Source: a virus (Duplodnaviria; Heunggongvirae; Uroviricota; Caudoviricetes). From it: a DNA stretch of 42,396 nt. The notes under the pieces are model-generated. The model saw only the letters and a program-made list of their open reading frames with translations. It ran no database searches and was not told the origin of the DNA. The DNA lies in the IMG/VR virus record IMGVR_UViG_2861064056_000003; one strand, 5' to 3'. The translations under genes and the position numbers were made by a program. Position 1 is the first letter of the stretch. Every line of letters begins with the position of its first letter. Shown piece by piece: positions 1 to 1,045 of the stretch.

Positions 1-324
1 TTACTCCAGAGACAGCCGAACCGAAAAACCGTTTTCAGCGAGCGTCAGACTCAGTGTGTTGATAGTCCAGTCCCGGTCCTCCTCGGTCCCGAAACCTTGA
101 GTTGTGACTTTGCATTCTGCTGTCAGCGACACTAAATCGAGCGTCGCTGGCGTCGTGTACGTCATAGAGAACTCTTTTTTAGCTGCACCGCCCTTGAGCC
201 CTGGTGCAGCTTCTTTCGCTGCGTCGAGCGACGGCTCAACTGCCGGCCATTCAATGACAGGATCGCCGCCACTACCTTGTCCGCAATTCTTTGATCTGCC
301 CAGTTGCTGTGTCGTGATATTTAA
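1..324 (-). pseudogene. C-terminal part of the gpD-like tail protein, in a different frame from 272..1045; probable frameshift or indel
   Basis: Manual minus-strand translation: frame open from 324 to 4 with stop at 1-3; first in-frame ATG only at 165, so unlikely to be an independent gene. Confidence 0.4.
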
Positions 325-1045
325 TCAGATACGTCGGTTCCGGATTTTCGCCACCGCTACCACTATCGCCACTTTGTCCATTTCTCGAATAGCCCCAGCT
401 GGAGTTATCACGACGAGTTAGCGTGTAGTGCTGGAGCGGAGCACCGCTAACAGATTCGCCCGCGCCGCGCGGCAGGAATATCCAGTACCCGCCCGCGGGT
501 TTACTCACCGCATCGAATCTCGTTGCGAGCCGCGACATCAGGTGCATATCTGACTCGCCGACCTGATCGAGTTGCGTGATAACATTGTCTGCAAACCGCT
601 TTGATACGCGTGGTTTTAGCCCATTATCGCTCGCTATTGTCGCAACGATATCGCTGACAGTGACGTCGCTCCAGGAACGAGTCTTTTTGCTCTGAACTGT
701 CGGAGATCCTTTTGCTGCGTTCATCGGAGCCGCTTTTGCTGTGAAATCAACTACCCGGGGTTCACCGCCACTGCTAGCACCGTCAACGATGTATATCCCT
801 TTATCAATTATCTGATTACCGAAACCGAGCCCAATACTGATTTTTACTCCGCGGGCCGGAATTTTCAGAGTTTCAGAAACTATTGCTACGCGGAGTTCGT
901 CTGTCTGTTTACTGGAGCCGCCGTAATCTGTCAGCGTGATATTGATCAAACCTTTTCTTATTTTATCCGTGATGTTTTTATTATCAGCAGATATATAAAA
1001 ATTAGGTTTCCACGCCTCCACGCCAGTATTTACGTAATCACTCAT
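272..1045 (-). CDS. Phage tail protein D (P2 gpD-like), N-terminal 257 codons
   Basis: ORF track; last gene of a P2-order tail cluster (T-U-X-D); shorter than typical gpD unless joined to the 1..324 frame. Confidence 0.5.
   Translation of the reverse strand: MSDYVNTGVEAWKPNFYISADNKNITDKIRKGLINITLTDYGGSSKQTDELRVAIVSETLKIPARGVKISIGLGFGNQIIDKGIYIVDGASSGGEPRVVDFTAKAAPMNAAKGSPTVQSKKTRSWSDVTVSDIVATIASDNGLKPRVSKRFADNVITQLDQVGESDMHLMSRLATRFDAVSKPAGGYWIFLPRGAGESVSGAPLQHYTLTRRDNSSWGYSRNGQSGDSGSGGENPEPTYLIKYHDTATGQIKELRTR

Follow-up and report, generated by a model that had tools for sequence, protein, structure and literature searches.

A one-base insertion in the gpD-type baseplate hub gene of an Escherichia coli ST131 prophage

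The window analyzed here, a virus record of 42,396 nucleotides (IMGVR_UViG_2861064056_000003), is a prophage in which the gene for a gpD-type baseplate hub is spread over two minus-strand reading frames. The best explanation of the data as a whole, to which we assign a probability of roughly 90%, is an authentic one-nucleotide insertion within E. coli ST131 that truncates the hub and likely leaves the prophage tail defective. According to this explanation, a duplicated A at 277/278 (minus strand) in the hub gene of a prophage with a lambda-like head and a P2-like contractile tail would stop translation after residue 257 and leave the C-terminal 91 residues of the 347-aa hub unmade. The lost segment is predicted to be integral to the gp27-like hub fold, the base for the baseplate and tail tube, and the prophage would no longer be able to assemble a functional tail.

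Reading frames and identity of the hub gene

The 5' part of the hub gene is the minus-strand open reading frame (ORF) 1045..272, which encodes 257 aa, has the C terminus ...IKELRTR, and ends at TAG 274-272. A second minus-strand frame, whose codons begin at multiples of 3, runs without a stop from 324 to 4 and is closed by TAA at 3-1. ATG, GTG, and TTG are all lacking from this downstream frame between 324 and 166. The earliest start codon, an ATG at 165, opens a 54-aa ORF (1..165, minus strand) that carries a "Gene D protein" note in ON470596. The two frames overlap in 272-324. This arrangement, with a stop at 272 and no usable start early in the downstream frame, had been pointed out in a preliminary description of the sequence and was confirmed by ORF calling and translation. 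The probability that about 108 codons are free of stops by chance is (61/64)^108, or roughly 0.006. The open downstream frame exceeds chance, because a run of this length is improbable and, which carries more weight, because the frame matches the tail-protein profile of the upstream ORF collinearly.

Four GenBank "phage" records match window positions 1 to 1300 at an identity of at least 99.9%. Such matching records (vB_EcoM-569R10 and others) are PHASTER predictions on Illumina drafts, not isolated phages. Three of the four agree with the window at every base; ON470604 is shorter by one base and has a single 1044-nt gene annotated as "tail formation protein D." When the window was aligned with ON470604, and also with ON470596, the sole difference from ON470604 was ACAAGG in the window (280-275, minus strand) versus ACAGG. 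The window has one extra A at 277/278 (minus strand), which shifts the downstream reading by +1. The intact reading is CGG ACA GGT AGT GGC (R T G S G), whereas that of the window is CGG ACA AGG TAG (R T R stop). The insertion site is a dinucleotide (AA on the minus strand, TT on the plus strand) and not a long homopolymer run. When the extra A is removed, the result is an ORF of 347 aa, close to the joined length of about 345 aa that had been proposed. The shift had been expected in the overlap interval 272-324, and the alignment places it there; its proposed position around CAGATCAAAGAATTG was slightly off, since the extra base lies a few bases farther downstream, within the AA of ACAAGG (278-277), directly before the stop.

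In the 257-aa product, residues 1 to 256 are authentic and are followed by an aberrant Arg (AGG 277-275). The 3' part of the gene (1..276, minus strand, +1 frame) starts with GGT 276-274, encodes the 91 aa GSGGDPVIEW...SVRLSLE, identical to the C terminus of the intact 347-aa protein, and runs to its natural stop TAA. In the window allele, this part is untranslated unless ribosomes shift.

Alignment to the gpD family identified the two fragments as collinear pieces of one gpD/gp27-type hub protein. The upstream ORF matched positions 186 to 417 of the phrog_52 profile ("tail protein"; E = 1.9e-74), and the downstream frame matched positions 423 to 512 of the same profile (E = 5.6e-14), collinear with the upstream ORF; the repaired protein was matched in one stretch over residues 6 to 347 (E = 2.7e-94). 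The pyocin R2 hub PA0628 (6u5h_C) was matched by phmmer (E = 2e-22). A large protein collection contained 102 homologues, nearly all of which had a precomputed PF05954 (Phage_GPD) match. Homologues with 48 to 97% identity, from Escherichia, Salmonella, Enterobacter, Cronobacter, and Citrobacter, are 347 to 354 aa long and colinear across the junction, where they read ...IKELRTGSGGDPVIEW.... Among the homologues, the sole sequence that stops at the window's stop is a cluster of the identical 257 aa (P0009). The repaired 347 aa falls within the family range of 330 to 400 aa. The window itself has no single uninterrupted ORF of family length; the reading stops after 257 codons, and the rest is in the +1 frame.

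In a Pfam scan, the repaired protein scored 23.8 bits against PF05954, below the gathering threshold of 30.1 bits, which marks this hub subfamily as divergent from the Pfam seed. The C-terminal fragment on its own gave no match in Pfam or NCBIfam scans; its identity came only from PHROGs and the homologue alignment. The AlphaFold (AF2) model of an intact orthologue (P0001, 97% identical) has a mean pLDDT of 86 and structured elements up to residue 346. This model matches solved hubs over its full length (probability of 1.00, 352 to 390 aligned columns), including those of pyocin R2 (6u5h_A), Mu gp44 (1wru and 9ki1_G), the MuSo2 43-kDa protein (3cdd), and T4 gp27 (1k28_D), as well as structures from P1 and many VgrG/PVC/AFP hubs. 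The window gene thus belongs to the gpD/gp27-type baseplate hub family, but as a disrupted and probably nonfunctional member.

The hub gene is the last gene of a P2-like tail module (window 1-5935) with the order sheath, tube, E/E', tape measure, U, X, and D, as given by the order of the window ORFs, by Pfam for X and U, and by the RefSeq names in strain EC958. The gene for tail protein X (1049..1273, minus strand; PF05489, E = 2.3e-15) is immediately upstream of gpD. The gpU-type tail protein gene (1435..1863, minus strand; PF06995, E = 3e-31) is also annotated by RefSeq in the same prophage in EC958. The E/E' region of this module (3609-3660) is laid out as one would expect for the conserved, programmed -1 frameshift of E/E+E', in that the -1 frame is open past the end of the 93-aa gpE-like tail assembly gene (stop 3611-3609) to the tape-measure start. 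A possible A-AAG slip site is present in CTG GTA AAG (region 3500-3660, minus strand); no classical heptamer was identified in the E/E' region.

Distribution of the two alleles and state of the prophage

We searched 5,426 complete E. coli genomes with an 80-base query over the site (window allele) and with the 79-base intact allele. The allele with the extra A (+A) was found exactly in 363 genomes and the intact allele in 69. Two more divergent alleles were found as well; the one listed, that of H124, is unshifted and 91% identical over the 80-base query. The +A allele is also present in draft assemblies made from Illumina reads only (SPAdes). The intact-allele group includes many poultry isolates.

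The fimH types of named ST131 strains were taken from PMC4933990. Among the +A carriers, JJ1886, JJ1887, JJ2434, and uk_P46212 are H30Rx, MNCRE44 is H30R1, and CD306 is H30S, while among the carriers of the intact allele, SaT040 and G749 are H22 and ZH063 is H35 (PMC4933990). EC958, a +A carrier that is absent from the table in PMC4933990, has been described as fimH30 (PMC4134206). Every +A carrier whose fimH type was checked is H30 (clade C), a link that is based on about 10 named reference strains out of 432 genomes. The +A mutation originated within ST131 and has been passed on vertically. The +A allele is derived, very recent, and lineage linked, and it predates the split into H30S, H30R, and H30Rx.

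SaT040 has this prophage too, likewise inserted at the yecA / leuZ-cysT-glyW site. Over 41.6 kb (>99.9% DNA identity), the differences between the two copies are 5 SNPs, two indels of one base each, and an IS1 element that only the window has. The indels are the gpD base at 277 (T in the window, a gap in SaT040) and a C6/C5 tract at 2740. Since the same prophage occupies the same site in SaT040 with the intact base and few differences, the mutation is both real and recent. A near-identical intact allele that differs by the indel, together with intact outgroups, is the pattern of a frameshift pseudogene.

The preliminary description had left the choice between an authentic frameshift and a one-base indel error. 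According to the latter, the insertion would be a sequencing or assembly error in the window and the true gene would be intact. One-base indels are the commonest assembly error, and the near-identical ON470604 lacks the base. However, the same allele is present in the 363 complete genomes and in the Illumina SPAdes drafts, which come from independent laboratories and platforms; it tracks lineage, in that H30 strains have it and H22 and H35 strains do not; and the AA/TT site has no long homopolymer. Given how many and how diverse the assemblies are, Illumina-only drafts included, sequencing error is excluded, and we give an error in the window practically no credence. The data support the authentic frameshift, with a single base inserted relative to the intact alleles and both fragments derived from one hub protein.

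The prophage comprises 42 kb; in E. coli ST131, its integration site is flanked by yecA on one side and by the leuZ-cysT-glyW tRNA cluster on the other. Phi4 in the Phi1-Phi7 scheme of EC958 is located at another place, at 1.48 Mb. The prophage is a mosaic in which a lambda-like head and packaging region (11500-19300), containing genes for terminase, gpW, portal, S49 protease, decoration protein, major capsid protein, and FI, is combined with a P2-like region for the contractile tail and baseplate (1-11500). The edges of the window are the gpD stop codon (1) and the stop codon of the integrase gene (42396; gene 41350-42396). The left end of the prophage is probably outside the window, since EC958 has about 1 kb more between gpD and yecA, including a gene for a 139-aa hypothetical protein.

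The window differs from the EC958 prophage by one SNP, one C9/C8 tract, and a 768-bp IS1 at 25910-26677. The window has every gene annotated in EC958 for head, tail, lysis, replication, and integration. Because the differences from EC958 are few and all of its annotated genes are present, the hub frameshift is the sole obvious structural-gene lesion of the window prophage. PHASTER scores the matching regions as an "intact" prophage.

Several other features of this prophage and its relatives were observed. The IS1 is complete, with terminal inverted repeats, insA (25965-26240), insB (26159-26662), and an A6C frameshift motif at 26216, and it is flanked by the 8-bp direct repeat GGAATTTG at 25902-25909 and 26678-26685. 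It is missing from the same prophage in EC958 and SaT040, and its insertion cuts short the gene that follows the ImmA/IrrE-family peptidase gene (WP_001138663.1 in EC958). The intergenic poly-C at 28505-28513, which is C9 in the window and C8 in EC958, may reflect either true variation in the tract or a miscounted homopolymer in one assembly. A C6 tract in the tape-measure gene (2735-2740) is C5 in SaT040, where the gene is annotated as two coding sequences (CDS). This split in SaT040, an H22 strain with an intact hub, may be a lesion of its own or a PacBio homopolymer error. In the Japanese E. coli strains TUM9975 and TUM2367, both of which have the frameshifted hub, an IS1 is inserted in the adjacent gpX gene, which is further decay of the tail module.

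Truncation, recoding, and the 54-aa ORF

In the P0001 model, the part after residue 257 consists of a strand (260-270), a helix (273-289), and further strands (292-346), all modeled with high confidence. Several positions of the lost segment are invariant or nearly so in the family. In gp27-type hubs such as T4 gp27 and Mu gp44, the C-terminal part is one of two tube-like barrels in each subunit, and these barrels build a pseudo-hexameric ring beneath the tail tube. Each hub is trimeric, and three copies per tail suffice. Loss of hub function is expected because the insertion removes structured, conserved residues (257-347), and we infer the loss of both hub function and infectivity. A tail-defective prophage is the likely consequence, and the label "defective prophage" in the preliminary description is a reasonable one. 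A counterpoint is that the NCBI pipeline (PGAP) lists the 257-aa product as an ordinary CDS and not as a pseudogene. Literature searches for induction or particle data on this prophage found none. Even a rare translational restoration of the frame might give some function, with the hub needed at only three copies per tail.

Such restoration could in principle be efficient or programmed. At ACA-AGG-UAG, the ribosome would stall on AGG and the stop, a Gly-tRNA would read GGU in the +1 frame, and the 347-aa hub would be produced. A +1 shift is indeed what is needed, and after ACA it yields ...T-G-S-G..., the same as in the intact protein; the frame-restored hub would contain the junction-spanning peptide ELRTGSGGDPVIEWP (...IKELRTGSGGDPVIEWPAVEPSLDAAK). 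Slow A-site codons stimulate +1 shifting, as in prfB, at tandem AGG codons, and at Ty3-type sites. AGG is the rarest Arg codon of the late genes (15 of 5,987 codons, or 2.5 per 1,000), UAG is directly next to it, and the hub is one for which three copies per tail are enough. AGG-UAG does provide a slow A-site codon, in a context that the mutation itself made. The shift is not conserved, however: the sister alleles with identical flanks (n = 69 in E. coli) and all homologues are unshifted. In addition, the P-site ACA is unable to re-pair on CAA, where only one of three pairs would be kept, and there is no Shine-Dalgarno-like element (GGAGG or AGGGG) in the 30 nt upstream. The RNA folding of 180-300 is unremarkable (z = -0.9), and an Rfam scan of window 1-4500 at an E value of up to 1 gave no element. 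Programmed +1 frameshifting is not supported by these data; at best it would be accidental leakiness, and we consider an efficient or programmed shift very improbable. It is equally improbable that pausing at AGG-UAG with occasional reading of GGU yields enough wild-type hub for a weakly infectious, "throttled" prophage in H30 strains. If such leakiness did operate, the prophage of the pandemic ST131-H30 lineage would be weakly infectious rather than dead.

A further alternative is that the hub is naturally made in two pieces, one being the 257-aa N-terminal product and the other the 54 aa encoded by ORF 1..165. The ATG at 165 has AAGAG six bases upstream, the 54-aa ORF is listed as a gene ("hypothetical protein") in some records, and phrog_7984 consists of it. 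In such a split hub, however, the approximately 37 residues between the stop and ATG 165 (GSGGDPVIEWPAVEPSLDAAKEAAPGLKGGAAKKEFS) would be lost, and these hold the predicted strand 260-270 and most of the helix 273-289. The arrangement is found in no homologue, and relative to the H22 strains the split is one mutation old. A naturally split gene was therefore rejected on account of the lost structured residues, the lack of a split homologue, and the recent mutation, and we judge it very improbable. The 54-aa ORF is a by-product of the frameshift and not an independent gene. It is matched end to end by phrog_7984 (54 positions, function unknown; E = 8e-41), a family that appears to have been built from C-terminal fragments of the frameshifted hub gene and not to be a real protein family.

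Implications and comparison with known systems

These findings bear on both annotation and typing. The window sequence can be trusted at 277/278, and resequencing is unneeded. WP_001296153.1 (257 aa) and the 54-aa ORF both come from one broken hub gene, for which annotation as a pseudogene is due; the fragments are now propagated as ordinary genes and even as the separate family phrog_7984. The extra A is a simple candidate marker that distinguishes the typed ST131 fimH30 strains from the typed H22 and H35 strains. The truncation also leads to a prediction, namely, that in H30 strains no functional tails can be made by this otherwise complete-looking prophage, which PHASTER scores as "intact." What is seen here in a well-known ST131 prophage is the usual kind of decay by frameshift, with no new biology or mechanism.

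The hub gene shares with P2 gpD and R2 pyocin PA0628 (PF05954; a gp27-like group that also includes Mu gp44 and the N-terminal part of VgrG) its place after gpU and gpX, a direct sequence match (to PA0628, E = 2e-22), the full-length fold of its intact orthologue, and the family length. In contrast to P2 gpD and PA0628, the window gene is broken by a frameshift after codon 256, and its C-terminal quarter is untranslated. The intact allele of non-H30 ST131 (SaT040, WP_001531766.1, 347 aa) is in the same prophage and lacks the extra A at window position 277. The programmed tail-gene shifts of P2 E/E+E' and lambda G/GT likewise join two overlapping frames into one longer protein. Those shifts, however, are -1, are conserved among relatives, occur at slippery sites, and give two functional products, whereas the shift in gpD is +1, is not conserved, and goes back a single mutation.
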